Below are positions 3,229 to 47,681 of a DNA stretch of 64,000 nt, piece after piece. Under the pieces are notes generated by a model. The model was not told the origin of the DNA and searched no databases. It saw nothing but the letters and a program-made list of their open reading frames with translations. The stretch covers positions 128,001 to 192,000 of the forward strand of contig CAWHWQ010000001.1 of NCBI GenBank assembly GCA_963833095.1. The letters are read 5' to 3'. Every line of letters starts with the position of its first letter. Within the stretch, counting starts at the first letter, position 1. Made by a program: the position numbers and the translations under genes. The DNA comes from Vulcanimicrobiota bacterium (lineage in GTDB: Bacteria; Vulcanimicrobiota; Vulcanimicrobiia; Vulcanimicrobiales; Vulcanimicrobiaceae).

Positions 3229-4686
3229 TGCTCCAGCTTCTGCTTCATCAGGTTGTTGACGAGTTGCTGGATCGGCTTTACCGGCGCTAGCTTTCATCAC
3301 CTGTCCGACAAGAAATCCCATCACGTTGGTCTTGCCCGCTCGATAATCGTTCACGCTTTTCTCGTTCGCCGCGAGGACCTGGTCGACGAACTTTTCGATC
3401 GGCCGCCGGATCGCTGGTCTGCGCGAGGCCTTCGCGTTGCACGATTGCCTTGGGCGAACCCTCGCCGCTCCACATCCGCGTCACCAGGTCTTTGGCAATC
3501 TTGGAGTTGATCGTCTTGCCTTCGACCAGCGCAATCAGCTCGGCGAGATGCCCTGGAGTCACCTCCGATTCGTACACCGGTTTGCCGGTCTCGTTGGCCA
3601 ATCGCGAGAGATCGCCGAGAACGAAATTCGTCGCTTGTTTGGGACTCTCGCTGGCCTCGACTACGGAATCGAAAAATGTCGCGAGCGCGCGCATTGTCGA
3701 CCAGCTGCGTCGCCTGCTTAGCGTCGAGTCCGAGTTTGCCCGTGTAGCGCTCGAAGCGATGGACCGGCAATTCCGGCAGTTGCTCGCGCAACCGTTCGAC
3801 CGTGCCGCGCGCAATCTCCAGCGGCACCAAATCGGGATCGGGAAAGTACCGGTAGTCGTGCGCTTCTTCCTTGCTGCGCATCGGCACAGTGATGCCGCGC
3901 AGTTCATCCCAACCACGCGTTTCTTGGATAATGCGCTCGCCCTTTTCGAGCAAATCGATCTGGCGCTCGATCTCAGTCTCGATGGCGCGATGCACCGACC
4001 GGAACGAGTTCATATTCTTGATCTCAGTCTTGGTGCCGAGCTTCTCAGAGCCAACCGGACGCACCGAGACGTTGGCATCGCAGCGCAGCGAGCCTTCTTC
4101 CATCTTTACGTCGCTTACGCCGAGTTGCTGCAGCGTGCGCCGCAACGCCTCGAGATATCCGACTGCCTCATCCGCGCTGTGCAGCTCCGGTTCGGACACG
4201 CATTCCATCAGCGGCACGCCGGCGCGATTGAAGTCGACCAGTGAATAGGTGCTTCCCGCGATGCGGCCGTCGTCCGAACCCGCGTGCGTCGACTTACCCG
4301 TATCTTCTTCTAAGTGAATGCGCGTGAGGCGGCATTCCTTCACCGTGCCGTCCTCGAGCCAATAGCGCACCACGCCGCCTTGCGTGAGCGGCATGTCGTA
4401 CTGCGAGATCTGGTAGTCCTTAGGCATGTCGGGATAGAAATAATTCTTTCGGTCGAACTTCGAAAACGCCGGAATCTCCGCTCCGAACGCGAGGCCCGCA
4501 ACGAATCATATGCTCGATCGCGGCTTTATTTACGACCGGAAGCGAGCCGGGCAACGCGAGGCACACCGGACACACTTTGGTATTCGGTTCGCCACCGAAC
4601 TCGTTTGCGCAGCCGCAGAACATTTTGGATTTGGTCCTCAGCTCGACATGGCATTCAATGCCAATCACTGCCTCGTACTTAGACAT
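3225..4686 (-). CDS. gatB: Asp/Glu-tRNA amidotransferase subunit B (frameshifted)
   Basis: [55 protein letters not shown]. Confidence 0.96.
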
Positions 4687-4720
4687 GGCCAGCAACGGTC
4701 TCGATGGAGCGGGCGACGCG

Positions 4721-4840
4721 GTAACGTCGATTAGGCGCGCCCTGGGGGAATAAAACGCTTGCCGCAATCGCGCGCGCGCCATGGTTTGGGGTCCCCACGA
4801 CGTGGGGGGCGCGGAGCCTAGGGCGGAGCGCCTTTTAAAC
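4721..4840 (+). repeat. ~120-bp structured intergenic repeat (family B)
   Basis: Aligns with 44390->44271 (identical GGCGCGCCCTGGGGGA; GGGG(T/G)CCCC hairpin; GGGGGG-GCG..GGAGC..CC) and partly with 43179->43119 and 14316->14248. Confidence 0.8.
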
Positions 4841-4850
4841 AAGATGCTCA

Positions 4851-6351
4851 TCAGCCGACCACCTCAGTTAAAGTGGGTTTGTATTTACGCGCATGCTGAG
4901 TCTTTTGTTCGTAGGCGTGGGCGGCTGCCAAAAGCGGCCGCTCAGCGAAAAGCGGCGCGCAGAGCTGCAGACCCATCGGCATGGGGCGATCCCCACCGGG
5001 CGGCGTCACCCAGCCGCACGGGACCGAGAGCGCCGGCAATCCAGCAAGCGACATCGGAATCGTATAGTAGTCCATCAAGTACATGCTGTAGGGATCGCTC
5101 TTGGCATTGAATTGGAAGGCCGGTGAGCTTGCGGCCGGGCAGGCGATCAGATCGCATGACTTCGCAAACGCGCGTTCGAAAATCGTTGCGCGATGAGCGT
5201 GCGCGCCTTCTGCGCGCGCACGTAGTAGGCGTCGTAGTAGCCGCTCGAGAGCGCGTACGTTCCGATCAGGATGCGCCGCTTGACTTCCGGGCCGAAGCCC
5301 GCCGCGCGCGTGCGCTCGTACATCTCGCTGCACGTCGGCGCCGTCGACGCGCAAGCCGTAGCGTACGCCGTCGAAGCGCGCGAGGTTCGACGAGCACTCG
5401 GCCGGCGCGATGAGGTAATAGGTCGCAAGGCCGTAGTCGGCGGTCGGCAGCTCGACCTCGACCGAGTTCGGCGCCGAGCGCTTGCGAGGTCGCGATACGC
5501 CTGCGCATAGACGGCGTCGATCTCCGGGCCGAGCGCGCCGGTCGCGAACTCGCTTGACGATCCCGACCCGCACGCCGCGAGATCGGCGCGCAGATGCGTC
5601 GGCCGTCGTCTCGAACGGCCGGTCGATCGAGGTCGAATCCATCGGATCGTAGCCGCCCATCGCGTCGTACGCCAGCGCCGCATCTTCGACGGTGCGCGCA
5701 AACGGGCCGATCTGATCGAGGCTCGAGGCAAACGCGATCAATCCGTAGCGCGAGACGCGGCCGTAGGTCGGCTTGAAGCCGACGAGGTTGCAAAACGCCG
5801 CCGGTTCGCGAATCGAACCGCCGGTATCGCTGCCGATCCCGATCGTCGCTTCGTACGCCGCGACCGCCGCCGCGGAACCGCCGCTCGAACCGCCGGGCAC
5901 GCGCGAGAGGTCGTAGGGATTGCGCGTGACGCCGAGCGCCGAATTTTCGCACGAACTGCCCATGGCAAACTCGTCCATGTTCGTTTTGCCGATCGGCATG
6001 CAGCCGGCGTCGAGCAAGCGCGCAACGGCCGTCGCGGTGTACGGCGCGACCCAATGCTCGAGAATTTTACTCGCCGCACGTGGTGCGCGTGCCGGTCAGG
6101 CACATGTTGTCTTTGACGGCAAGCGGAACGCCGGCTAGCGGCAAATGCTCGCCCGCCGCAATGCGCGCGTCGACGTTCGCGGCCTGCGCGCGCGCCAGCT
6201 CGTGCAGTACGGTCAGATAGGAGCCGATCTGCGAGTCGACAGCGTCGACGTGCGCGAGCGTGGCATCGGCGACCTCGCGCGCGGAAAGGCTACGCGCATT
6301 GACGTCGCGCGCGATCTGCGCGGCGCTTTGTTCGATCAGAGGATTGGACAC
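4851..6351 (-). CDS. gatA: Asp/Glu-tRNA amidotransferase subunit A (frameshifted)
   Basis: [58 protein letters not shown]. Confidence 0.96.
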
Positions 6352-8332: not shown

Positions 8333-8442
8333 CGTAGCGGTATCGTTCGCCTCGCCAGGGGGGGCTCCCGCCCCCTCCTGCGGGGAAGTCGTTGCTCTCA
8401 GGAAGCATTACGTTTACGCTTGCTCTAATAAAGCCGGCGCCG

Positions 8443-9300
8443 ATGATCACCGAGACCGAAGACCAACAGCAACGCGACGATGACCGCACCACCTTGGTGT
8501 GGTCACTTCTCGTTTCCGGCTTTGCCAACCTGATGGTCTGGATCGTGCTGGGGTGGGCGATCATCGCGCACATTCGCACGCTTGCACCGGTGCAGGAACG
8601 TCCTGAGATCATTACCGTCACCACGCAAATGATGCACGCGCCGATGGTTGCCTCATCGTCGCAGCACCTCGCGGCGCGCAGCCATCCGATCCCTCGATCG
8701 CAGCAAGAGCCGCAGCACCAAGCGCAACCGGAACCCAATCACAAATCGGTGGCGATGAATTTGGCCGCGACCCCGAAGCCGCAGGAGCGGCCGACCGAGC
8801 TTGCGCGCACCACGCCCAATGGAACGCCGGTTCCGCACAGCGCGCCCAAGCGAACTGAGGCGCTTGCCGAAGTGCTCGCGCAACAGCAGGCCGCGTTCGC
8901 GAAAGAAGCCGACGCGCTCAATGCCAAGAACGGGCCGATCTCGGTTGCGACCATCGATCCGAATCAACGCGAATCCGCGAGCAAGTCGTATCGCATGAAC
9001 CTCTCCGGCAACACGGAGATCCAAGGCCAGGGCTTCGGTTTCTTAGACCCGTTGGAGCGTTGGATCAGCAACGGCCTGCACTGCTATAAGGGGCGATATC
9101 ACTGGCTCTATCCGACCGGCGCCACCGAAGTAGCGAACATTCCGTGGCCCTTCTGCTATCCGCCGGGCGCCGACCCGATCGCGCGCGGTTTGCGCCAATT
9201 TCCGTTCCCGCTGCCCTTAGCCGGATATCGTCTGCCGGCGGGAACGTTCCTCGACCCAATCGAGAAGGACGTCTATGAGTCGTGGCTCGCGCATCAATGA
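8443..9300 (+). CDS. Membrane-anchored Pro/Gln-linker protein, paralog 1 (TonB-like topology)
   Basis: N-terminal TM, P/Q-rich linker, C-terminal domain shared with 9337..10191. Confidence 0.8.
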   Translation: MITETEDQQQRDDDRTTLVWSLLVSGFANLMVWIVLGWAIIAHIRTLAPVQERPEIITVTTQMMHAPMVASSSQHLAARSHPIPRSQQEPQHQAQPEPNHKSVAMNLAATPKPQERPTELARTTPNGTPVPHSAPKRTEALAEVLAQQQAAFAKEADALNAKNGPISVATIDPNQRESASKSYRMNLSGNTEIQGQGFGFLDPLERWISNGLHCYKGRYHWLYPTGATEVANIPWPFCYPPGADPIARGLRQFPFPLPLAGYRLPAGTFLDPIEKDVYESWLAHQ

Positions 9301-9336
9301 AGGAGCGGAAGTAGCGGAAGTAGCGACCGGCAACCC

Positions 9337-10191
9337 ATGATAACCGAACGAGACGATCAGCAAGAACACGACGATGACCGCGCCACTTTGGTGTGGTCGC
9401 TTCTCGTTTCCGGCTTCGCCAACCTGATGCTGTGGATACTTCTCGCGTGGGTGATCGCGTTTCGCACTCACGAGTTGGTCCTGGTGCAGAAGCAGCCGGC
9501 CGAAGTGTTCACCGTGACGTCGTCATCTTTGAATATCGCCAAGCGTACGCAGCCGATCCCGGCGCAACCGAATCAACAGGCCGTCCCGCAGCCCCGGCAA
9601 CAACGGGAGCCGCAGCACCAGCCCAAGCCGAAGCACGCGCCGCAACAAGCTACGCCAAAGCCGCGAGCGCAACCGACTGAGCTCGCGCACGTCACGCCGA
9701 ACGGAACGCCGCAGCCGCGGAGCGCACCGAAGAAGCAGGCGCAAGGAACGCTCGCCGAGCAGCTGGCGCAGCAAGAGGTAGCGTTCCAGCACGAAGCCCA
9801 GCAGATTAACGCGCAACATTCGGTGATCTCGATCGCGACGGTCGAACCGAACCACACGCCCTCAGCGCAAGAGCCCTTTCAAATGGATATCTCGGGGCTG
9901 CCGGGCGAACCGCAGCGTGGGGAAGGAATCATTTTCCCAAATCCGATGGCAAGAGTGCATGGCTACGACTGCTACAACGGCGGCAGATATACGCTTCGGT
10001 ACAATAATGGACAACTCGAACGGGGCGATATTCCGTGGCCGTTCTGCTTCGCGCCCAGGCAGGATCCGTTTTTGCAAAGGTACCGTTCGTTCGATATGCC
10101 ATTGCCGGTGGCGGGCTATCGTTTGCCGCCCGGAGTTGAGCTCCAGCCGGCAGCAAAGGACGTCTACAGTGCATGGCTTTCGCAACAGTAA
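9337..10191 (+). CDS. Membrane-anchored Pro/Gln-linker protein, paralog 2
   Basis: Shares DDDR.TLVWSLLVSGFANLM, IPWPFC, PLP.AGYRLP.G, KDVY..WL with paralog 1. Confidence 0.8.
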   Translation: MITERDDQQEHDDDRATLVWSLLVSGFANLMLWILLAWVIAFRTHELVLVQKQPAEVFTVTSSSLNIAKRTQPIPAQPNQQAVPQPRQQREPQHQPKPKHAPQQATPKPRAQPTELAHVTPNGTPQPRSAPKKQAQGTLAEQLAQQEVAFQHEAQQINAQHSVISIATVEPNHTPSAQEPFQMDISGLPGEPQRGEGIIFPNPMARVHGYDCYNGGRYTLRYNNGQLERGDIPWPFCFAPRQDPFLQRYRSFDMPLPVAGYRLPPGVELQPAAKDVYSAWLSQQ

Positions 10192-10195
10192 GACA

Positions 10196-13100
10196 TCAGT
10201 GAAAATTGTGGGAACGCACGCCGCCCACCACGCCTTCGTCATCGAAGACCCATGCTGCGCGCGCGAGCACGTCGATCGTCCCCTGTTCTTTCTGTAAGAC
10301 GCCTTCGATCACAATCATGCTGGCGGTGCGAATGACGCGGCGGTAGCGCTCGTAGACGTCGGGCCGCACGATCACGTTGACCAGGCCCGTTTCGTCCTCG
10401 ATCGTCAAAAAGACGAAGCCTTTGGCCGTGCCCGGCCGCTGCCGCGTAATCACCAGGCCGCCCACACGGCAGACCAGATGATTGGGCATCGCCTCTAAAC
10501 CTTTCGCTGGAATCACCCGCTTGGCGTCGAGCTGTGCCCGGAAATGCGCGACCGCTTGGCCTTTGGCGGTAACGCCGGTCGACCACAGATCGAAGGAGGT
10601 CTCGACCTTGGGTCCGAGCGGCGCAAAGCGCACCGCCGGTTCTACGACATCCATCAACTTCCCAAGTTCACCGCGCGCCTCGCGTTCGTCGAGCGCGCGC
10701 AGCGCCCACATTGCCTCGCGCCGCGACCCGAACCAGGGTGCAAATGCGCCGGCTACTGCGAGATTCTCGATCGCCTCTTTTTCCAAGCGCGTACGTTGCG
10801 CGAAGGTGAGTAGATCCGTGAACGCTCCGCCACGCAACGCCGCTTCGAGGCGCTCTTTCTGCGCGCTGCCGAGGCCGCGCACGAGATGGAATCCGAGGCG
10901 CAACGCGCCCCGCGCATCAACGTGCGACCAGTATTCGCTTGCGTTCACTTCGACCGGCTTGACCACGACGCCGTGACGACGAGCATCGTTGACCAGCACT
11001 TCGGTTGAGTAGAATCCCATCGGTTGCACGTTCAAAATCGCCGCCGCGAAGATCGCCGGAAAGTGGCACTTCACGTAGGCCGAGGCATAGGCCAGCAGTG
11101 CAAAACTGGCCGCATGCGATTCAGGAAAGCCGTAGTCGGCAAAGCCTTCGAGCATGTGGAAGAGCTGCTCGGCCGCCGCGCGATCGATCCCGTTCGCCAT
11201 CATGCCTTCCACCAGCCGCGGAAAGATCTCGCGCATGCGTTCGTGCGAGCGTTTGTGTCCCATCGCGCGCCGCAGTACGTCGGCTTCGCCCGGTGAAAAT
11301 CCGGCCGCTTCGATCGCCATGCGCATCCCCTGCTCTTGAAAGAGCGGCACGCCCATCGTGCGCTCGAGCACCGGCTTTAATTTTGGATGCGGATAGGTCA
11401 CCGGCTCGAGCCCGGCGCGCCGGCGCAAGAACGGATGCACCATCTGCCCTTGAATCGGCCCGGGCCGGATGATCGCGACCTGCATCACGATGTCGTAGAA
11501 GCACCGTGGTTTCATTCGGGGGAGCATCGACATCTGCGCACGCGACTCGATTTGAAACACGCCGATCGTATCGGCTTTGGTGATCATGTCGTAGGTCGCG
11601 GGATCATCCGGCGGGATGGTGTGCAATGCGAGGGGCTGCCCTCTTGTCATCCCGAGCGTAGGCGCGCAGCGCCGTAGTCGAGGGAAGCGCATCTGGGCCG
11701 CTGCTTGCGAAGACGCTCCTCGCGGCACATCCTGTGCCGCTCCTGCTGCGCGAGTTTTGCGCAACGACCAACGGAAGTTCGCATCCTGCGAATTGCGCAA
11801 AACTTCGAGCCTTCGCTTATCAGCAGTCCAGATGCGCTTCCCTCGACTACGCTTTGCTACGCTCGGGATGACAAGAGTGCGTTTATGAATTGAGAATGCC
11901 TCTCGTAAAAGAGAAAGCATGCCCAGACCTAAGAGGTCGATTTTGATCAGGCCTAACGCTTGCAGGTCGTCTTTGTCCCACTGAATGATGGTGCGGTCGC
12001 GCATCGTGGCCCATTCGATCGGCGCAACACGAATGAGCGGATCACGCGTGATGACCATGCCGCCGGAGTGAATGCCCATGTGGCGCGGAAAGCCGTCGAT
12101 ACGCCGGCAGAATTCTTCGAGGCGCCCGGCGCGCTGCCCGAATTGGGCGGAAGCATCGGCGAGCGATTCGCGCGCGTCGTATTCCTTGGCAAGCTCGTCG
12201 GTTTGCTCGACGGTAAAGCCCAGCGCTTTGGCCACGTCGCGAAGTGCCGAGCGCGTGCGGTAACTGATGACTTCGGCTGCCATCGCGGCGTTGCTGCGCC
12301 CGTAGCGTTCGTAGATGTATTGAATGACCTGCTCGCGGTCTTGATGCGCGAAGTCGATATCGATGTCGGGAATCTCTTGGCGCTCCTCCGACATGAAACG
12401 TTCGAAGAGCAGATCCATGCCGATCGGATCGACCGCGGTAATGCCCAGCGCGTAGCAGACCGCGGAGTTCGCGGCCGAGCCGCGGCCTTGGCAGAGCACG
12501 CCGAGGCGCGCAGCAGCTTGGACGATATCCCACACGATCAGGAAGTAGCCCGCTAGATCCATCTTGGCGATGATGCCAAGCTCGTATTCGAGTTGACGCT
12601 CGACGTTCGATGCGATCGGCGTGCCGTAGCGCTCGGACGCACCGCGATAGGTCAATTCGCGTAGATAGCTTTGGCGCGTGTACGTATCCGGCACCGGAAA
12701 GAGCGGGAATTGACCGGTCAGGCGTTCGAGCCGGAAAGCACAGCGCTGCGCGATGCCCAGCGTTGCATCGACGGCCTGCGGATAGGCGCTGAAAATCGCG
12801 CGCATCGCGGCGGCGGATTTGAGGTGGTACTCGGCATTAGGGCGCAGGCGGTGCTGCGCGCGGGCCGCATCGAGCGTGATCGTCTCCTTGACGCACGCGA
12901 GGATGTCGGCGAGCTGCGCATCCTCGCGGCGCGCGTAGACGACGCCGTTGGTTGCGACGCAGGCTACGTGCATCTCGCGGGCCAAGCGAACCAGCCGATC
13001 GTTGCGCTGCGCATCGTCAGGTGTGAGATGGTGCTGCAGTTCGAGATAGCAGCGTTCGCCGAAGAACGCGCGCAACGCGTCGATACGCTGGGAATCCGGG

Positions 13101-13747: not shown

Positions 13748-14230
13748 TTATCTCCGTAGCCACGTGCGGAGCATCCGCAAATCGAGTCGCGTAACGATCT
13801 GCGGACACTCGGCACTGCAGCAGTGCAGCGCACGCAACCGTTCGCGCACGCGCTCCCGCGCGCAGGCGAACTCGGCATCGATCGCGGCACTGGATAGAAA
13901 GCGTTCGTTCTCGATTCGCAAGTGAGCGAAACGACGGTGCAGGGTCCGTTCGTCCTCGATCTCGCCGACGAAGCACGCGCGTAACCGGAGACGCTCGCCG
14001 TATCGGAACCCCGCGCGCAGTTCCCGGATACGCCTCATCGGATGCTCCGAGTAGCCCACCTTCACGCAGCCGCCGTCGAGCTCGAGCAGATAGACGAATC
14101 CGTAGTTAAAGCCGGCCAGTTCTTCGAGCGGGGAGAGCAGATGATTGGTACGGGTGATCTCGCCGCTGCGAAGCCACGCCGATGCGACACGTTGAAACCG
14201 CTCGCACGCGGTTTGCTCGACGCTAATCAT
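13748..14230 (-). CDS. T5orf172/MUG113-like (GIY-YIG superfamily) protein
   Basis: GFVYLL...VKVGYS..P..R...L...E..LH..F...R...E.F pattern. Confidence 0.8.
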   Translation of the reverse strand: MISVEQTACERFQRVASAWLRSGEITRTNHLLSPLEELAGFNYGFVYLLELDGGCVKVGYSEHPMRRIRELRAGFRYGERLRLRACFVGEIEDERTLHRRFAHLRIENERFLSSAAIDAEFACARERVRERLRALHCCSAECPQIVTRLDLRMLRTWLRR

Positions 14231-14247
14231 ACGACCCCCGCAGATTT

Positions 14248-14316
14248 CCCCAACGGCCGGCCGCCGTCGGGGGCCCCTTCCGTTTTAAAGCGCTTCGCTT
14301 ACGCTCCGCGCCTCCT
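14248..14316 (-). repeat. Family B repeat with halves permuted, between duplicated imuB 3' ends
   Basis: GGCGCGGAGCGTAAGCGAAGCGCTTTAAA then GGGGCCCCCGACGGC..GCCGTTGGGG. Confidence 0.7.
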
Positions 14317-14352
14317 GTCGCTGATATCTGCGAGCCTGCGATAAGAGCAATG

Positions 14353-15618
14353 CTAATCATATGAACCTCGCAGATACCAGCGTTCGCCTTGACGATAGAT
14401 CCGCCAGACTTGGCCGGTATCGAGTTGCACGTCGTATTCGTCGCGCGCGGTGTGGGCGGCGGTGAACCACCCTTCTTCAACGCGCCACGGCCCGGAGCAA
14501 TGTTGTACGATACGCTCCCCGATACTCGAGGGCTCTCCCCGGCGCAAGCGGACGTCGATCTCAGTGACCGCGAGCAAGCGCAGTTGCGGCACGATCTTCG
14601 TGGATTCGGCTTCGCCCAATCTGTAGCGTTCGGCCTTGGGCCGATCCGCACTAAGCGTGAACGGTTCGTAGGTGAAACGCTCTTCGAGCTGGTGGGCTGC
14701 CCGTGTGTGCGCCCGGCGCACCGGTTCACCAAGCATCGCTTCGAGCCGTGCCAGCACCACCGCAACGTTCGCGCGATCGATCTCATCGCCGGCGAGCAAC
14801 GGCATCGGTTCTCCACCTTCTTCTAAGCCGGCCGCACGCAGACGCAAGCCGCAGATTGGCGCCGGAAAACTCGCGCCTTCCAATTTTGCACGCAGTACGT
14901 CAAGCATCGCACGCTCCTGCGAGGTGGCAGCGGCGAGTTGCACCTCGATGCGCGCGGTATCCGCACTCTCGAGTTCGATCTCGACCTGTAATGCGCTCGC
15001 GCGCTTGCCGCAACGTTCCAAATCGCTGCAGATCCGTCCGATCAATACGCGCAATGCAAAGACGACGGCTGCTTCGCTCTGCGCCGAACCCTCGCCGAGC
15101 ATAGCCGCCTCGATTGTGATTGCGTGTCCGCGTGGCACGAACGGTGAACGATCGACGCCGCGCGCAGCCTCGTGCCAACGCGCCGCATCGGGACCGAAGC
15201 GGCGCACGAAGGGCCCGTGCGGCAGTGCAGCTAGCGCTCCGAGCGTCGTGACACCGAGCAGATGCAACCGTTCGATGATATCGGCATCGCATTCCAAAAC
15301 ACCAAGCGGCATCGGCGCCAGCGTTTGCGCTTCGCGGCCTACCTCGATCTGCGTGACATCAGCATTCCAGGAAGCGGCAAATGCGCAGAAACGATTCGGC
15401 CCCGCTCCGACGCGCGCGCAAAGCGCATACGGGACAAGCGCGGTGCGGATGCTTGCGCTCCATGCTGCAAAATCGCCGCCTGCGCCGTGCATATCGAGCA
15501 ACGTGACGCCGCGACGCACATCTTCGATCAGCGGCGTGACCGCGTCGAGCGCATCGAGGATCTCTTGCCAGACGTCATCACTGCGCACGTCATCAACAAT
15601 CCGGACACAAACGATCAT
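14353..15618 (-). CDS. imuB: ImuB-like inactive Y-family polymerase
   Basis: VTPLIE, VGAGPNRFCA, LHLLGVTTLGALAALP, RRFG, GPWRVEEGWF, RDEYDV, WYLRGSYD; operon position. Confidence 0.88.
   Translation of the reverse strand: MIVCVRIVDDVRSDDVWQEILDALDAVTPLIEDVRRGVTLLDMHGAGGDFAAWSASIRTALVPYALCARVGAGPNRFCAFAASWNADVTQIEVGREAQTLAPMPLGVLECDADIIERLHLLGVTTLGALAALPHGPFVRRFGPDAARWHEAARGVDRSPFVPRGHAITIEAAMLGEGSAQSEAAVVFALRVLIGRICSDLERCGKRASALQVEIELESADTARIEVQLAAATSQERAMLDVLRAKLEGASFPAPICGLRLRAAGLEEGGEPMPLLAGDEIDRANVAVVLARLEAMLGEPVRRAHTRAAHQLEERFTYEPFTLSADRPKAERYRLGEAESTKIVPQLRLLAVTEIDVRLRRGEPSSIGERIVQHCSGPWRVEEGWFTAAHTARDEYDVQLDTGQVWRIYRQGERWYLRGSYD
14601..14646 (-). repeat. 46-bp repeat (family C) in frame within imuB
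   Basis: 43/46 identical to 16396-16441 in opposite orientation. Confidence 0.8.
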
Positions 15619-16395: not shown

Positions 16396-16441
16396 GATCA
16401 GCCGAAGGCCGAACGCTACAGATTTGGCGAAGCCGAATCCA
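16396..16441 (+). repeat. 46-bp repeat (family C), intergenic copy; partial copy at 16352-16372
   Basis: GATCAGCCGAAGGCCGAACGCTACAGATTTGGCGAAGCCGAATCCA. Confidence 0.8.
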
Positions 16442-16830
16442 TGCCGCCGGACGATCGCATTGAGGAATGGGCCCTAGGACTCGTCAAAGCGGACGTGCAC
16501 GCTTTTAAGCGGGCGCGGGTGCGCTTTTTGCGTCAGCGCAGCGCCAAACGCTTGCACGAGCTGCGTACCACCGCGCGGCGTTTGCGGTGCATTCACGAAG
16601 ATCTGCGAGAAGCAATTCCACCGTTTTCGCTCAAACGCTTACGCCGCTTGATCGATTTGACCGGCGAGGCGCGCGATGCGGCGGTCATGCGTGAGGCGCT
16701 ACGCAACGCCCTCGACACACGCGAGCGTCATGCCGCTCGTAGCTTGTTGCGCGCGCTGCGCCGGCGCGAGCGTCTCGCCCTTGCTCGCATCGCTCGGGCG
16801 CTCGAACACGTGAAGCCGACGCAGCCATGA
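16441..16830 (+). CDS. CHAD-domain protein, N-half type
   Basis: LHELRTTARRLR, GEARDAAV. Confidence 0.8.
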   Translation: MPPDDRIEEWALGLVKADVHAFKRARVRFLRQRSAKRLHELRTTARRLRCIHEDLREAIPPFSLKRLRRLIDLTGEARDAAVMREALRNALDTRERHAARSLLRALRRRERLALARIARALEHVKPTQP

Positions 16831-42218: not shown

Positions 42219-43088
42219 CTAGCTGGCTTGCGCGGGCGAGTGAATAGTCCGCCTCGCCGAGCGCGATCTCGTCGTCGCTCAGAAATGCGCGCCGCGCTTC
42301 GCGCAATTGGGTGGAATCTTGGCGTCGATCGTGCCGGCGTCGGTCTCGACGATGACGCCGCCGCGGTCGACGCGTTGATCTTCGACGACGCGCAGATGTT
42401 CGACGTCGTTCGCCGCGACGATCTCATCGCGATGCTCGCGGATCGTATCCAGATCGCCGGGATTGACCCGCAGCGTCACGACTTCGCGGCCGACTAGGCG
42501 GGTCAGCGCCTGGCGTACGTTTTCGACGACGACGTTCGGGTTCGAACGAGTTCGTTCGTGCACGATGCGCTCGGCGATCGCCATCGCAAGTCGCGTGAGT
42601 TCGGGTTCGGCTGACGGTCATAACCGCGCTGCGCTGCGCGCGAATGCTTTCGATGAGCTCTGCGAGGCGTCGAAATCACCGGCTGCCAGCTCCGCTTCGG
42701 CGGCGCTCTTTCCGGCGCTGGAGCCTTCCTCGTGTCCGCTCGCGCGAGCGTCTTCTTCCATTTGCGCGATGCGCATCGCAGCCGCAGCCATAAGGTCGAG
42801 TGCGTTGGCATCGCTTGGCAGGATCAGACTCTCGGCGTCGCTTGCCGCGTGATCGATGATCGCCGCGTGCGTCGGCGCGCAGCTTTTCCCAATCGACGCT
42901 GGGCTCGGCCTGCGGAAGCGTAATACGCTCCGTGTGTCCGTTGGAAGACGGCGTTACAAACGGCGCGGCGAACCGGTCGTCCGGCTCGCCAGGTGTTTGC
43001 GCTTGCGCTTCGGCGACAAAGTCAACGTGCGGAACTTCGACGACGTAAGCGGCGTCGGAGAAGCGCGCCGCTTTACTATTTTACCCAT
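42219..43088 (-). CDS. fliH: Flagellar assembly protein FliH (frameshifted)
   Basis: LRVNPGD, VDRGGVIVETDAGTIDA. Confidence 0.85.
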
Positions 43089-43118
43089 CCGTACTCCGCA
43101 CGGACGGGTCCCCAAGAG

Positions 43119-43179
43119 GTTTAACCGGCGCTCCGCTGCGCTGCGCGCCCCCCGACGGCAGAGCCGTCGGGGACCCCCC
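43119..43179 (-). repeat. Family B repeat between fliG and fliH
   Basis: GGGGGGTCCCCGACGGCTCTGCCGTCGGGGGGCGCGCAGCGCAGCGGAGCGCCGGTTAAAC. Confidence 0.8.
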
Positions 43180-43187
43180 GACCGTCA

Positions 43188-44271
43188 TCAGACAAGGCGC
43201 TCGTCCTTTGCTCCGCGAGCGATGACGATCTGGCCGTTCTCTTCGAGCGTGCGGATGACGTCGACGATCTGCTGCTGCGCCTTGCCGACTTCGCGCATGC
43301 GCGTCGGGCCGAGCAACTCGATTTCTTCTTTGAGCATCGGCGACGCGCGCGTCGACATGTTCTTGTAGACGCGCGCGAGCAGCTCTTCGTTGGCGACCTT
43401 GAGCGCGAGCGCAAGATCCTTGCCATCGACTTCCTTGAGGATGCGCTGGATCGAGCGGTCGTCGAGGTTGATGATGTCTTCGAAGACGAAGAGCAGGTTC
43501 TTGACTTCCTGCGCGAGCTCGGGATCGCGCTTGGCGAGACCGTCGAGAATGTTTTTCTCGGTTTCGCGGTCGACGAAGTTCATCACGTTGGCCAGCGACT
43601 GCACGCCGCCGGCCTTGGCGAAGTCGGCGCCGCTGACGAGCAGTCGGCGGCCGAGCAGCTCGTCGAGCTGCTCGAGCACTTCCGGCGCGGTCTTCTGCAA
43701 AATCGCGATGCGCATCGCGACTTCGGCTTGCAGATCCGGCGGGAGCGCCGAAAGCACGGCGCCCGCTTGTTCGGGCTGCATGTAGACGAGGATCAGCGCG
43801 ATCGTCTGCGGATGTTCGTCTTGAATGAACTGCAGTAGCTGCGCGGGTTCGGTCTTCTTGATGAGCTCGAGCGGATTGCCGTGCTTGAGCGCGGCAAACA
43901 GCCGCGATCGTCATGTCGTCGGCTTGGCCGGCGCCGAAGCTGCGCTCGAGAATCTCCTTGGCGTACTCGATGCCGCCTTCGTTGATGTACTTGAGCGCGA
44001 TCGCGCGCTGGTAGGCTTCTTGGATGACGGCGTCGCGCTTCTCGATCGGAACGGTCGTGATCTTGGCGATCTCGAGAACGATCCGCTCGACTTCGTCTTG
44101 CCGCAAGAACTTGAAGATCGTCGCCGAGAGCTCGAGCCCCAGCGTGATCAAAAGAATCGCGGCCTTTTCCGGCCCCGAAATCTCGATCTGCGGATTTTCG
44201 GGCAGACCGGTGAGCGGCGGCGGCTCCGGCAGCCCGCCCATGCCCGAGAGATTGACGATCGGTGATTCCAT
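43188..44271 (-). CDS. fliG: Motor switch protein FliG (frameshifted)
   Basis: KAAILLITLG, GGIEYAKEIL, LFVFEDI, LALALK. Confidence 0.95.
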
Positions 44272-44390
44272 TAGCAAGGTGCTCCGGCCGAGCCTACGCA
44301 CCCCCCGCTAAGCGGGGCCCCCGTACCAAGGCGCGCGACAGATCGCATGTATGCAACAGTCTCCCCCAGGGCGCGCCCAAACAACATTAC
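44271..44390 (-). repeat. Family B repeat (full-length) between fliF and fliG
   Basis: Aligns end to end with 4721-4840; GGTGC/GCACC covaries with GGCGC/GCGCC. Confidence 0.8.
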
Positions 44391-44416
44391 GTCGACAGCG
44401 TTCATTTCACGGGACC

Positions 44417-46093
44417 TCATTCCGCCAGCCACAGTTTGACGAGTTTGGCGATGCTGTCGGGGTTCTCTTGAGCGACGGTGGTAACGTATTCGATCATCTG
44501 TTCGCGAGTCAGATCGGCAGCGGATCGTATCGGTGCGGCGATGCCCGGCGCACCTTCGAGGATCGGATGCTCTTCGAATGGGGGCAGCTCTTCGGCAAGC
44601 GAGGTGTCGAAGGACGGCAGTTCGGTGGCCGGCGCGAAGCGTCCGCGACGCGAACGCGTTACCAAGAGGCCGCCGATTGCGAGCGCGGCTGCGAGACCGA
44701 CGGCGATAAGTGCCCAAAGTGGCATGCCGAGGACGGTCGTCGTTGCGGACGACGGCGCACCGACGTTTTCAACCGACGGATTGAACGGAATGGCTTCGAC
44801 CGACACTTGATCGCCCTGCGCGACGTTAAGGCCGGCAGCGGCAATGACGGCGTTGCGAATCTGTTGCACGTTTGCCGGCGTCAATTGGTAGGTCTGCGCG
44901 GCGGCGAGAGCGGGCGTGCCGTTTGCGTTTGCAGCTTGCGCCGAGGCGTCGACCAGCACCGCGACGCTGGTTTGCAAAACTTTGCCCGGCGCGTCGATGT
45001 GCTTGATGTTCTGCTCGGTGATGTCGTAGTTGGTCGTCGACTTCGAGCGATTGTAGCGCCCGTTAGCTTGTTGATTGGCGGCCTGATAGGTGCCGATGTT
45101 GCTCGTCGTTCCCGGGACGCCGACCGCCGGGTTACGAACCGGCTGCGTCCCGACATACGATTCGCGCTCGGATTGCGCGGAGAGCACGGTGCCTTGCGGC
45201 GCGTACACTTTGCTGTCGGTCGAGTTAGCGTCGAAATTCATCTTGGTCGAAACGCGAGCGACCGCGCGCTTGGGACCCAGTGTCGAATCGAGCATCGACT
45301 GGATGCTGGTTTGCAGCGCCGACTCGTAGCGCTCCTTAGCGAGCAGTTGCTCTTGCGTCATCTGCAATGCGCTGGCCGAACCGTCCCCCGAACCCGAGCC
45401 CGTTGGTCCCGCGCCGGGCAAGAGAATTTGCCCGTCTTGATTGACGATCGTAACGTCTTGAGGCTTGAGCCCGTCCACCGCGCTGGCGACGAGCATCGTG
45501 ATGCCTTTGACTTGGCCGGCATCGAGGCTTTGGCCAGGCTTGGTCTTGATCGCGATCGAGGCCGTTGTAGGTTCCTGCGTTGCCGTGTAGAGCGCCTGGT
45601 CCGGCGCGGCGATGTTCACGCGCGAGGACTCTACCGGATCCAGGCCATCGATCGTGCGCTCGAGTTCTCCCTCGACGGCGCGCGTCTTATCGAGCTTCTC
45701 CTGGAACTCGGTCATCCCGAAGTTGGTCCGGTCAAACAGCTCGTAACCGGTGGACCCGCCTTTGATGAGACCTCCGCCGGCGATCGCGACCCGCTCGTCG
45801 CTGACGCTGGCGTCCGGAACGTAGACCGTTTTGCCGTCGGCAGAAAGATGATAAGGAACTTTATCATCTTTTAAATGTTGTGTAACGGCAGCGGCGTCGT
45901 CGGCCGAAAGGTTCGAAAACAGGGTCTCGTAGTGCTGACCCCGACCGAGGTAGAGCCACGAAAGTGCGAGCAAGCCGATGACGACCGCGGCGATACCGGT
46001 GACGGCAATCGTGCGTGTCTGGCGGTTCTGATTCTGCCAAATAGCCGTTAAACGGCCGGCAAGGTCGGACCAAAGCGAGCTAAGACGGTCCAC
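44417..46093 (-). CDS. fliF: MS-ring protein FliF
   Basis: GYELFD, RAVEGELERTI, LVASAVDGL, two TMs, AKLVKLWL. Confidence 0.96.
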   Translation of the reverse strand: MDRLSSLWSDLAGRLTAIWQNQNRQTRTIAVTGIAAVVIGLLALSWLYLGRGQHYETLFSNLSADDAAAVTQHLKDDKVPYHLSADGKTVYVPDASVSDERVAIAGGGLIKGGSTGYELFDRTNFGMTEFQEKLDKTRAVEGELERTIDGLDPVESSRVNIAAPDQALYTATQEPTTASIAIKTKPGQSLDAGQVKGITMLVASAVDGLKPQDVTIVNQDGQILLPGAGPTGSGSGDGSASALQMTQEQLLAKERYESALQTSIQSMLDSTLGPKRAVARVSTKMNFDANSTDSKVYAPQGTVLSAQSERESYVGTQPVRNPAVGVPGTTSNIGTYQAANQQANGRYNRSKSTTNYDITEQNIKHIDAPGKVLQTSVAVLVDASAQAANANGTPALAAAQTYQLTPANVQQIRNAVIAAAGLNVAQGDQVSVEAIPFNPSVENVGAPSSATTTVLGMPLWALIAVGLAAALAIGGLLVTRSRRGRFAPATELPSFDTSLAEELPPFEEHPILEGAPGIAAPIRSAADLTREQMIEYVTTVAQENPDSIAKLVKLWLAE

Positions 46094-46227: not shown

Positions 46228-47481
46228 TTACCGGGCCAGTTCGTTTCGTTCTCGTCCGACCGAGATTAATTCGACCGGGGTCGCTAGTACCTCTTCTATA
46301 CGGGCGATGTAGCGCCGGGCTGCTTGCGGCAACGCCGCCTTGGCGCGAATGTGCCCGATCGGCTCGCTCCAGCCATCGAGTTCCTCGACGACAACCTCGA
46401 GATCCGGGGATCCGGCAGCCGAGAACTCGGCTGCTTGCCCGCGCAACCGATAGCCTGTCACGATCCCCACGCGCTCGAATCCGCAGAGCACGTCGAGTTT
46501 TGTAAGGGCTAACGCCTGCAAACCATTAAGCCGAACCGCATACCGTCCCGCGACCGCATCGAACCAGCCACACCGCCGTGGGCGCCCCGTCACGGTGCCG
46601 AATTCGCCTCCCGCTTGGCGCAAGCGTTCCCCCCGCTCGTCCGGTAACTCGGACGGAAATGGGCCGGCACCCACTCGCGTGCAGTAGGCTTTGACCACCC
46701 CGATCACGCGGTCGATCGCCCCGGGGCCGATGCCGAGGCCAATGCACGCGCCGCCGGCAATGGTGTGCGAACTGGTAACGTACGGATACGTCCCATACCC
46801 CACATCTAACAGCGAACCTTGCGCGCCTTCGATTAACACTCGCTTATCGCGCTCGAACTTTTCGTGAATGTACGCAACGCCGTCCACGATGTGCGGCGCG
46901 AGCCGTTCGGCCGCGTCGAGCGTGGCTCCAACTAGGTCCGCTTCGCTCGGAACGTTCTCGCCCTCGAGCAACGCGGCGCGGTGGAGCAGATTCAAGCGAA
47001 TTTTCTCGGCGAGCGACTCTCGTCGCGCAAACTCACCGAAGGTAATGCCGCTGCGCGCGGCTTTGTCCACATAGGCGGGGCCAATACCGCGGCCGGTCGT
47101 TCCAATCGCGCCGGCTCCTCGGGCCCGTTCGCTCGCGCGATCTTGCGCGGCATGGTACGGCAGCACCAGGTGCGCGCGATCGGAGATCTTGACACGCGAG
47201 ATGTCGACGCCGATCGCGGCTAATCGGTCGAGCTCCTCCAGCAGGCCGGTCGGATTGATGACCGTGCCGCCACCGACAAAGAGCTCGACGTGCGGATTGA
47301 GTACGCCGGAAGGCACGATGCGCAGCGCGATGTCAACGTCGCCGACCTTGATCTGGTGACCGGCATTGTCGCCGCCGCCGAAGCGCGCAACCACGTCGTA
47401 GTTCTGCGCGTACAAATCGACGACGCGCCCTTTTCCTTCGTCACCCCACTGGATGCCTACGATGATATCTGCTTTGGTCAT
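46228..47481 (-). CDS. purA: Adenylosuccinate synthetase
   Basis: QWGDEGKG, GTTGRGIGPAY, TVTGRPRRCGWFD, TKLDVL. Confidence 0.98.
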   Translation of the reverse strand: MTKADIIVGIQWGDEGKGRVVDLYAQNYDVVARFGGGDNAGHQIKVGDVDIALRIVPSGVLNPHVELFVGGGTVINPTGLLEELDRLAAIGVDISRVKISDRAHLVLPYHAAQDRASERARGAGAIGTTGRGIGPAYVDKAARSGITFGEFARRESLAEKIRLNLLHRAALLEGENVPSEADLVGATLDAAERLAPHIVDGVAYIHEKFERDKRVLIEGAQGSLLDVGYGTYPYVTSSHTIAGGACIGLGIGPGAIDRVIGVVKAYCTRVGAGPFPSELPDERGERLRQAGGEFGTVTGRPRRCGWFDAVAGRYAVRLNGLQALALTKLDVLCGFERVGIVTGYRLRGQAAEFSAAGSPDLEVVVEELDGWSEPIGHIRAKAALPQAARRYIARIEEVLATPVELISVGRERNELAR

Positions 47482-47489
47482 CTCTGCTT

Positions 47490-47632
47490 TCGTGATTTGT
47501 CATTTGCTCCTGAGGGAGCCACTCCTCGCAACCACATCGTGTGGTTGCTCCTGTTGCACTTCTCCGCGCTCTCGCCATCCTGGCTGCGCGCCTCGTACGT
47601 AGCCTCCCCACGGAACAGGTGACAAATCACGA
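47490..47632. mobile_element. 143-bp palindromic element (family A-related) directly upstream of purA
   Basis: Perfect 13-bp IR TCGTGATTTGTCA; internal module 47522-47557 homologous to 11716-11749. Confidence 0.75.
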
Positions 47633-47681
47633 CGCTAGAGATTGCGACGCGATGTCATCTGCGGGGGGAATTGGATGGGTT

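Follow-up and report, generated by a model that had tools for sequence, protein, structure and literature searches.

Repeats at four gene junctions

The stretch analysed here, called the window, comprises 64,000 nt from the genome of a Vulcanimicrobiota bacterium of the family Vulcanimicrobiaceae, a group of soil bacteria (G000 in our genome set), and positions refer to it unless a contig is named. On its minus strand, fliF (44417..46093; Pfam YscJ_FliF and YscJ_FliF_C) and fliG (43188..44271) are separated by a copy of a dispersed hairpin repeat, which is crossed by a 49-codon open reading frame (ORF; 44271..44420). The ATG of this ORF at 44420 overlaps the TGA of fliF (-4), and its TAA overlaps the ATG of fliG. 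We refer to an ORF coupled in this way to both neighbouring genes as a bridge. An earlier reading of the letters alone (the original prediction) had described this geometry, and both the sequence and short-read contigs confirmed it. The element was gap-free in contigs from three of four short-read runs, with two contigs spanning it completely and one covering 44286-44433. In the assembly, fliG is split by one extra base at 43908/43909, with FliG_N, FliG_M, and FliG_C falling in two frames. The base was absent from all four runs compared, and the frameshift is a 1-nt assembly error.

The fliF/fliG copy represents a type I element, in which a 3' core is preceded by a variable 5' hairpin and then a C4/G4 hairpin. 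The 5' hairpin (P1, 44330..44377, coordinates read from the sequence) has a 7-bp stem and a long loop, with two-sided base changes in five of its seven pairs across 26 copies. From the sequence and the alignment of copies, the C4/G4 hairpin (P3, 44301..44322) usually carries a GNA loop, which is TTA in this copy, and the conserved core (44277..44306) comprises a 5-bp stem, a GNA/GNA internal loop, and a 3-bp stem. The last loop of the core is GGAG, located 11 nt upstream of the fliG ATG.

The three other cases in the original prediction were all present in the sequence, again on the minus strand. A type II copy, in which the core is followed by a second hairpin, occupies fliG/fliH (43081..43188); its 35-codon bridge starts at -1 relative to the fliG stop and ends 8 nt into fliH (-1/+8), the start of which was confirmed against relatives. 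A truncated type II copy with a 45-codon bridge (-8/+8) lies between imuB and a T5orf172-like nuclease gene (14223..14360), with the imuB end and the 8-nt overlap duplicated at its flank. The nuclease gene itself (T5orf172/MUG113-like, 13748-14230) is situated between imuB and a dnaE2-like polymerase gene, and was noted in 10 of the 18 genomes of the genus. The gatA/gatB junction (4686..4851) holds an inverted type I copy, where an ATG at 4851 is in frame with the native gatB ATG at 4686, resulting in the fusion that the prediction had counted as a fourth case. In G005 and G010, the same allele is one base longer and forms a separate -4/+8 bridge. Given this allele and the 1-nt error in fliG, the fusion may be an assembly indel. 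The four copies fall into the two subtypes, which share the 3' core only. Further frameshifts were seen in gatB (4420-4427) and in a CHAD gene (16827-16830).

Structure, spread, and placement of the family

Copies were collected by pattern and profile searches, not by a covariance model. They are mostly ~110-200 nt long and GC-rich, with few stop codons in the body. Profile searches yielded ~15 copies in G000 and recovered the family in the window, where an exact-repeat search had not reported it. The core pattern gave 99 matches in 17 of the 18 genus genomes, and its reversed control gave none. In a sample of the phylum, it occurred in 37 of 81 genomes of the same family and in none of 69 others, with 1-38 matches per positive genome. 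G030 counts among the genomes of this sample that gave no match, and no conclusion draws on the unpublished genome G183. A GTDB-wide scan returned at least 125 stretches; among the 80 matches listed, most were from Vulcanimicrobiota/Eremiobacterota and a few were labelled otherwise. No match to the repeat was found in viral contigs, and an Rfam search of the window gave none at the gathering score.

In an unfitted alignment of 26 copies, 95.3% of the cells pair and 10 of 21 pairs show two-sided changes, which none of 500 shuffles equalled, although the structure was drawn from those same sequences and this favours the result. The proposed compensatory exchange (GGCGC/GCGCC vs GGTGC/GCACC) was recovered, the pair position being C-G in 24 and U-A in 2 of the aligned copies. 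Of 72 copies, 65 have GNA in the P3 loop, on which the search patterns placed no constraint. As RNA, the fliG/fliH spacer folds better than shuffles (z = -3.85), and the fliF/fliG spacer folds no better (z = 0.55). Since GCGNAGC is known as a very stable DNA mini-hairpin (from the accessible part of PMC13037366), the conserved, GNA-capped stems probably act at a single-stranded DNA stage of mobility rather than in a relay of ribosomes.

Gene starts, taken from our own gene finder, place the repeat at start codons within operons. We examined 108 copies in the genus, and 99 of the 100 that lie outside genes with both neighbours called are between co-directional genes, with none between convergent ones (background in G000: 1852 of 2613 gene pairs co-directional, 504 of the 1852 overlapping or abutting). 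Forward copies mostly end 6-8 nt upstream of the start codon (5-8 nt overall). In two automated sets, including operon heads, a start codon lies within 12 nt in 41 of 61 and 27 of 39 copies. Placement is looser in other genera (10 divergent and 6 convergent among 69 copies). The neighbours are core genes, such as purC, gcvPA, infA, nuoH/I, adk/map, truB/ribF, and greA/lysS. The last loop is GGA in 74 of 79 copies situated 10 nt or less from the start, compared with 4 of 15 farther copies, a group that comes from few junctions. In 64 of 72 copies, 9-11 nt separate the GGAG of the element from the start; its mean unpaired probability of 0.53 indicates partial pairing. The anti-Shine-Dalgarno sequence was found in the relatives' 16S rRNA in three of five genomes.

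Four further copies in G000 lie outside spacers: they are located within the end of a gene, adjoin a tRNA, or form an N-terminal extension. A type II copy, at G000:C1:213187, comes immediately after a sequence resembling a tRNA. Copies inside genes or at C-terminal ends, apparently in frame, were also seen at L129, L130, L131, L140, L056, L068, and L096. The genes holding intragenic copies look dxr-, ybeY-, rplD-, and accC-like, as judged by eye from translations with no library search. A longer composite repeat in G070 (L196-L205) shares the 3' core and occupies gaps of any orientation, with no bridges.

Frequency and persistence of bridges

A bridge was scored when its start lay -11 to +3 from the upstream stop and its stop -3 to +11 from the next start, or when the frame ran into the next gene; these limits were chosen after the genus copies had been viewed. 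Expected counts were obtained from two nulls that keep both spacer ends, one inserting 1-2 bases (frame-shift) and the other scrambling the interior (shuffle). Before the count, 13 copies were dropped from the genus set (fusions, intragenic or tRNA-adjacent copies), 2 were added, and 14 starts and 2 stops were set by hand. From the set of other genera, 7 copies were dropped, and 5 starts and 1 stop were hand-set. Two uncurated automated sets, which overlap in part, were based on 75 and 54 copies examined.

As the original prediction implied, coupling exceeded chance in every set. The genus gave 55 bridged copies out of 90, compared with 29.5 (frame-shift) and 31.5 (shuffle) expected, a count reached in 0 of 200,000 draws; the related genomes are not independent, so p values overstate the effect. 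With one copy per junction, the median was 18 of 32 against ~11 (median p = 0.0002). Other genera showed 21 of 41 (9.5 and 9.7 expected), and the automated sets 18 of 42 (7.6 frame-shift, 11.8 shuffle) and 20 of 39 (12.4 and 14.5, respectively). Ordinary co-directional gaps of 40-300 nt in G000 were coupled in 21 of 469 cases, with 17.9 expected. Coupling is about twice what the spacer ends alone give and far from universal. The claim that every copy is bridged does not hold, since the share is 43-61% across the four sets, and in G000 9 of 11 spacer copies are coupled or fused.

The bridges are indifferent to the peptide and to the repeat that supplies them. They use all three frames of the repeat (23/18/15), in line with the earlier view that structure is conserved and peptides are not. 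Inverted copies are bridged in 12 of 31 cases (5.3/7.7 expected), and unrelated repeats are bridged at purB/purC, so the suggestion that bridging is a property of the family's own structure was not supported. Where an ATG sits at the upstream stop, 52 of 59 genus copies are coupled. Among 76 bridges, a start at -4 and a stop at +4 were each counted 31 times; overall, starts range from -10 to +2 of the upstream stop and stops from -2 to +11, with the stops clustering at +4, -1, and +1.

Single junctions offered natural experiments, including the empty sites to be expected of a mobile repeat, and some of these are stop/start overlaps of the kind the element had been said to enter. The purB/purC junction is a plain ATGA overlap in 3 of 20 loci. 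The other 17 are filled with 93-366 nt, either of this family in either orientation or of unrelated repeats, and 16 of them are bridged, the sole unbridged locus containing unresolved bases. ATGA occurs on both sides of the filled sites, and bridges of 92-122 codons stay open. The nulls gave 12.3 (frame-shift, p = 0.004) and 9.3 (shuffle), the former being high since stops are available at the purC start in each of the two other frames. G000 contains two purC loci (G000:C4:257612-258802 and C5:15291-16463), whose junctions hold different inserts. The spacer of the second is identical to the G002 allele, so this locus may represent a duplicate or contamination of the bin.

At atpA/atpG, 12 of 18 genomes have a -1 overlap and six are filled; three of these pass the script, a 19-nt remnant passes by eye, and two fail. 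The filled alleles of atpG/atpD carry their own Shine-Dalgarno site, and eight of nine filled genomes are uncoupled; bridging is relaxed where the next gene keeps its own Shine-Dalgarno site. The fliG/fliH junction is a 4-nt gap in nine genomes, and remnants of 35-59 nt in G008, G012, G013, and G015 are all bridged by eye. Across the junctions examined, eroded remnants of 19-72 nt are still bridged. In G004 (L010), ~45 nt of the fliG 3' end are repeated after the fliG/fliH element, so that the final codons of the bridge duplicate the FliG C-terminus. At imuB/nuclease, G001, G004, and G005 show an empty -8 overlap, and in filled alleles the last codons of the upstream gene and the whole 8-nt overlap are repeated on both sides. 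Across the family, fliF/fliG is a -1 overlap in 5 of 29 loci, and gaps above 15 nt are bridged in 7 of 10. Seven genus genomes are filled at this junction, with six strict bridges and one starting at +6. In G002, G009, and G017 (L477, L482, L485), the element contains the gatA/gatB stop/start junction, its 5' half ending GatA and its 3' half beginning GatB; G006, G012, and G016 have only the 5' half of the element.

On the fliF tree, genomes with a filled fliF/fliG junction are interspersed with empty ones and include three filled/empty sister pairs, and both alleles occur together in the same metagenomes. Within the sister pairs, the final 30 nt of fliF contain 5-6 differences, compared with 0-5 in earlier bins. 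Copies from the same junction have a similarity of 0.72, compared with 0.52 within a genome and 0.51 between different genomes and junctions. A recent burst within genomes was rejected, as same-genome copies are no more alike than those from other genomes and junctions. For four of eight inverted copies, the best forward match lies at the same junction, pointing to inversion in place. We infer that the copies are old and locus-bound, and that they invert, shrink, and are exchanged between lineages.

Interpretation and comparison with known systems

The family is probably a non-autonomous hairpin repeat similar to mycobacterial interspersed repetitive units (MIRUs), whose ends half-build the bridge and in which selection keeps the frames that preserve downstream translation. 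In the sequence of events we propose, the 3' end would come to lie 5-8 nt before a start codon, as in the copies described above, mostly at operon junctions whose stop and start, in the empty state, overlap or lie a few bases apart. Arrival would duplicate part of the junction, or the ends of the element would supply an ATG and a stop; this is seen at some sites and presumed for the rest. With a GC-rich, stop-poor body, about a third of the copies would be bridged by construction. Purifying selection, suggested by the statistics, would then retain alleles in which ribosomes reach the downstream start through a stop-to-start frame, a fusion, or a Shine-Dalgarno site such as the GGAG offered by the last loop, roughly doubling the bridged share. 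Ribosomes that have traversed the bridge would re-initiate on the downstream gene; in passing, they would open the hairpin that covers GGAG and protect the RNA against Rho. The peptide itself would not matter.

Several observations weigh against this proposal. A strict bridge is missing from approximately 40-55% of the spacer copies, including 35 of the 90 genus copies. A large part of the pattern is inherent in the construction, as the nulls already give about one third, and 12.3 of 17 for the frame-shift null at purB/purC. The genomes are related rather than independent, with copies 72% alike at the same junction and 52% between junctions within a genome. The gene starts come from our own finder, and 19 were set by hand across the coupling sets. 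The empty fliF/fliG allele in the genus is a Shine-Dalgarno-led gap (9-12 nt in 10 genomes) and not an overlap; because the filled allele replaces this gap, simple insertion fails to explain the site. No fixed target duplication was detected (mean shared flank 4.19, null 4.00, largest null 4.24). Finally, searches in five genomes found no mobilizing enzyme, and of the proposed structured mobile repeat, the structured and dispersed part with covarying stems stands while a linked enzyme was not found.

These searches gave no Y1 transposase (repetitive extragenic palindrome [REP]-associated tyrosine transposase, PF01797) in any of the five genomes, including the copy-richest, compared with 6 of 14 controls. 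TnpB was present in three of the five, never beside copies; the family profile gave one match (E = 0.28) against nine tnpB loci, showing no homology to the ends of the resident tnpB elements, as would be expected of an IS200/IS605 end or a TnpB guide RNA. A reverse transcriptase occurs in one of the five. None of the copy neighbours, which were read by eye from N-terminal translations, with annotation of 47 of them and no library scan for most, looked transposase-like.

Small GIY-YIG genes (100-125 aa) were observed in four of the five genomes, bordered by inverted arrays of a second palindromic repeat, which is tagged TGTC/CGTC and differs from the bridge-carrying family (L160, L161, L162 at G000:C2 ~304950-305285, and L163); a related inverted repeat lies at 11673-11851 of the window. 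As CGTC REPs have no dedicated transposase according to the accessible text of PMC3733652, the small GIY-YIG nuclease is a candidate mobilizer. No published link between GIY-YIG and such repeats was found in titles and the beginnings of abstracts, most subscription papers being outside the search. The window also contains a 46-nt inverted pair 1.7 kb apart (14601-14646 / 16396-16441), a 39-nt inverted pair between purA and a GH125 gene (47480-47642), and two tandem paralogous ORFs with no Pfam match (8440-8595 and 9334-9489). A broader reading, possible although doubtful, is that of a so far undescribed class of enzyme-less single-stranded-DNA mini-elements that actively target start codons as a ready cassette, with a relay ORF and their own Shine-Dalgarno loop. 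Such elements would be swapped between related species at fixed hot-spot junctions and remodel the ends of essential proteins, as at gatA/gatB, perhaps mobilized in trans by the small GIY-YIG nucleases found among arrays of the second, GNA-rich repeat.

The excess of bridges could instead reflect selection to keep ribosomes on the spacer, through blocking Rho or melting the hairpin for free ribosomes at GGAG, rather than a handover of the same ribosome. We consider this unlikely, even though RNA unfolding and polarity are given as alternatives in the accessible part of PMC12548453, Rho is present in G000, G002, and G006, and GGAG is suitably placed and partly paired. The stops at +4, -1, and +1 cluster more tightly than unfolding would need, and G145 (95% complete) has no match over the Rho cut-off, yet 12 of its 18 copies are bridged. 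With Rho present, protection from polarity is a plausible alternative role of the bridge.

That bridges are a pure by-product of junction duplication, built-in ATG/TAA ends, and stop-poor GC-rich sequence, with nothing maintaining the ORFs, appears improbable. The built-in third, the many unbridged copies, and the duplicated overlap and gene end at imuB/nuclease would all fit. However, the frame-shift nulls keep both ends and give only about half of the observed count, the long purB/purC bridges stay open, and bridges persist after inversion and erosion. A domesticated regulatory cassette in housekeeping operons, such as an attenuator-like RNA switch or a stoichiometry tuner, might account for the repeated filling of the same junctions (fliF/fliG, purB/purC, ABC-transporter, and atp operons), the preference for core operons, and the supply of GGAG. 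We find it highly improbable, as sister species lack the element (the three filled/empty pairs in the fliF tree), both orientations and all three frames occur, unrelated repeats can take its place, and the RNA fold of the fliF/fliG copy is no better than shuffles. Intron-like removal from the RNA, which would make the ORFs irrelevant and suit the coexistence of empty and filled forms in samples, is scarcely credible, given that the skipped form lies in DNA contigs with 23 other differing letters and so is another allele, that Rfam gave no match, and that intragenic copies keep the frame.

The reading of a MIRU-like repeat with selected frames can be set beside known systems. No description of this family was found in titles and abstract beginnings, with most subscription papers and supplements outside the search. 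REP2 of Neisseria (120-150 nt, two stem-loops, ~25 copies; accessible part of PMC3184786) likewise lacks terminal inverted repeats and, positioned immediately upstream of ORFs, provides a ribosome binding site; it is described there as having a promoter and its own ATG and as heading transcripts, whereas the present repeat is mostly inside operons and crossed by a bridge. GTAG/CGTC REPs are also small, palindromic, non-autonomous structured repeats with some copies in frame within genes, but in the available text of PMC3733652 they lie downstream of genes, often between convergent ones. The present repeat precedes start codons (0 of 100 convergent) and has neither a Y1 transposase (in any of the five genomes) nor a constant terminal tag; some long copies have a GTAG-like motif ahead of GTCCCG, and the motif is variable in others. 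Compared with miniature inverted-repeat transposable elements, its ends are asymmetric in the 26 aligned copies, with no fixed target-site duplication. Translational coupling at -4/-1 and ribosome-delivering upstream ORFs share the junction geometry (PMC12548453, as far as accessible), but here two couplings in series flank a repeat-derived ORF with no conserved sequence.

The closest precedent is the MIRU, contrary to the original prediction that no named system resembles this one. In the accessible parts of PMC12548453 and PMC3184786, MIRUs appear mobile and insert at start codons, with an internal ORF coupled at -4 spacing in the former, and are 40-100 bp long with 4-nt direct repeats and ends overlapping the adjacent genes in the latter. 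Both are short and GC-rich, contain internal inverted repeats, and occur at operon start codons, with ORF ends overlapping the neighbours; both have empty and filled sites and are proposed to leave downstream expression intact. By these same descriptions, the present repeat differs in its phylum, in length (~110-200 vs 40-100 nt), and in number (1-38 matches per positive genome, ~15 in G000, vs 40-50 copies). It also differs in occurring in both orientations and all three frames with offsets of -10 to +2 and -2 to +11, in being about half bridged, in supplying GGAG, and in being absorbed into protein ends. No fixed 4-nt duplication was seen overall: ATGA stands on both sides at purB/purC and a longer duplication at imuB/nuclease, with no general excess. 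Set against these MIRU descriptions, the repeat resembles a MIRU in how it works, but its host, size, and end structure set it outside that group.

For MIRUs, the accessible text of a 2025 review (PMC12548453) still uses "likely" for the idea that a repeat can invade operons by ferrying ribosomes over its own length. The junctions described here provide a natural experiment for this idea, the same sites being empty, filled, inverted, eroded, or filled by unrelated repeats. With bridges kept about twice as often as chance and relaxed at Shine-Dalgarno sites, the selective value of double coupling can be tested with matched alleles. The repeat also explains odd terminal extensions in annotated core proteins of the phylum, and it raises the question of how an element with no transposase finds start codons.

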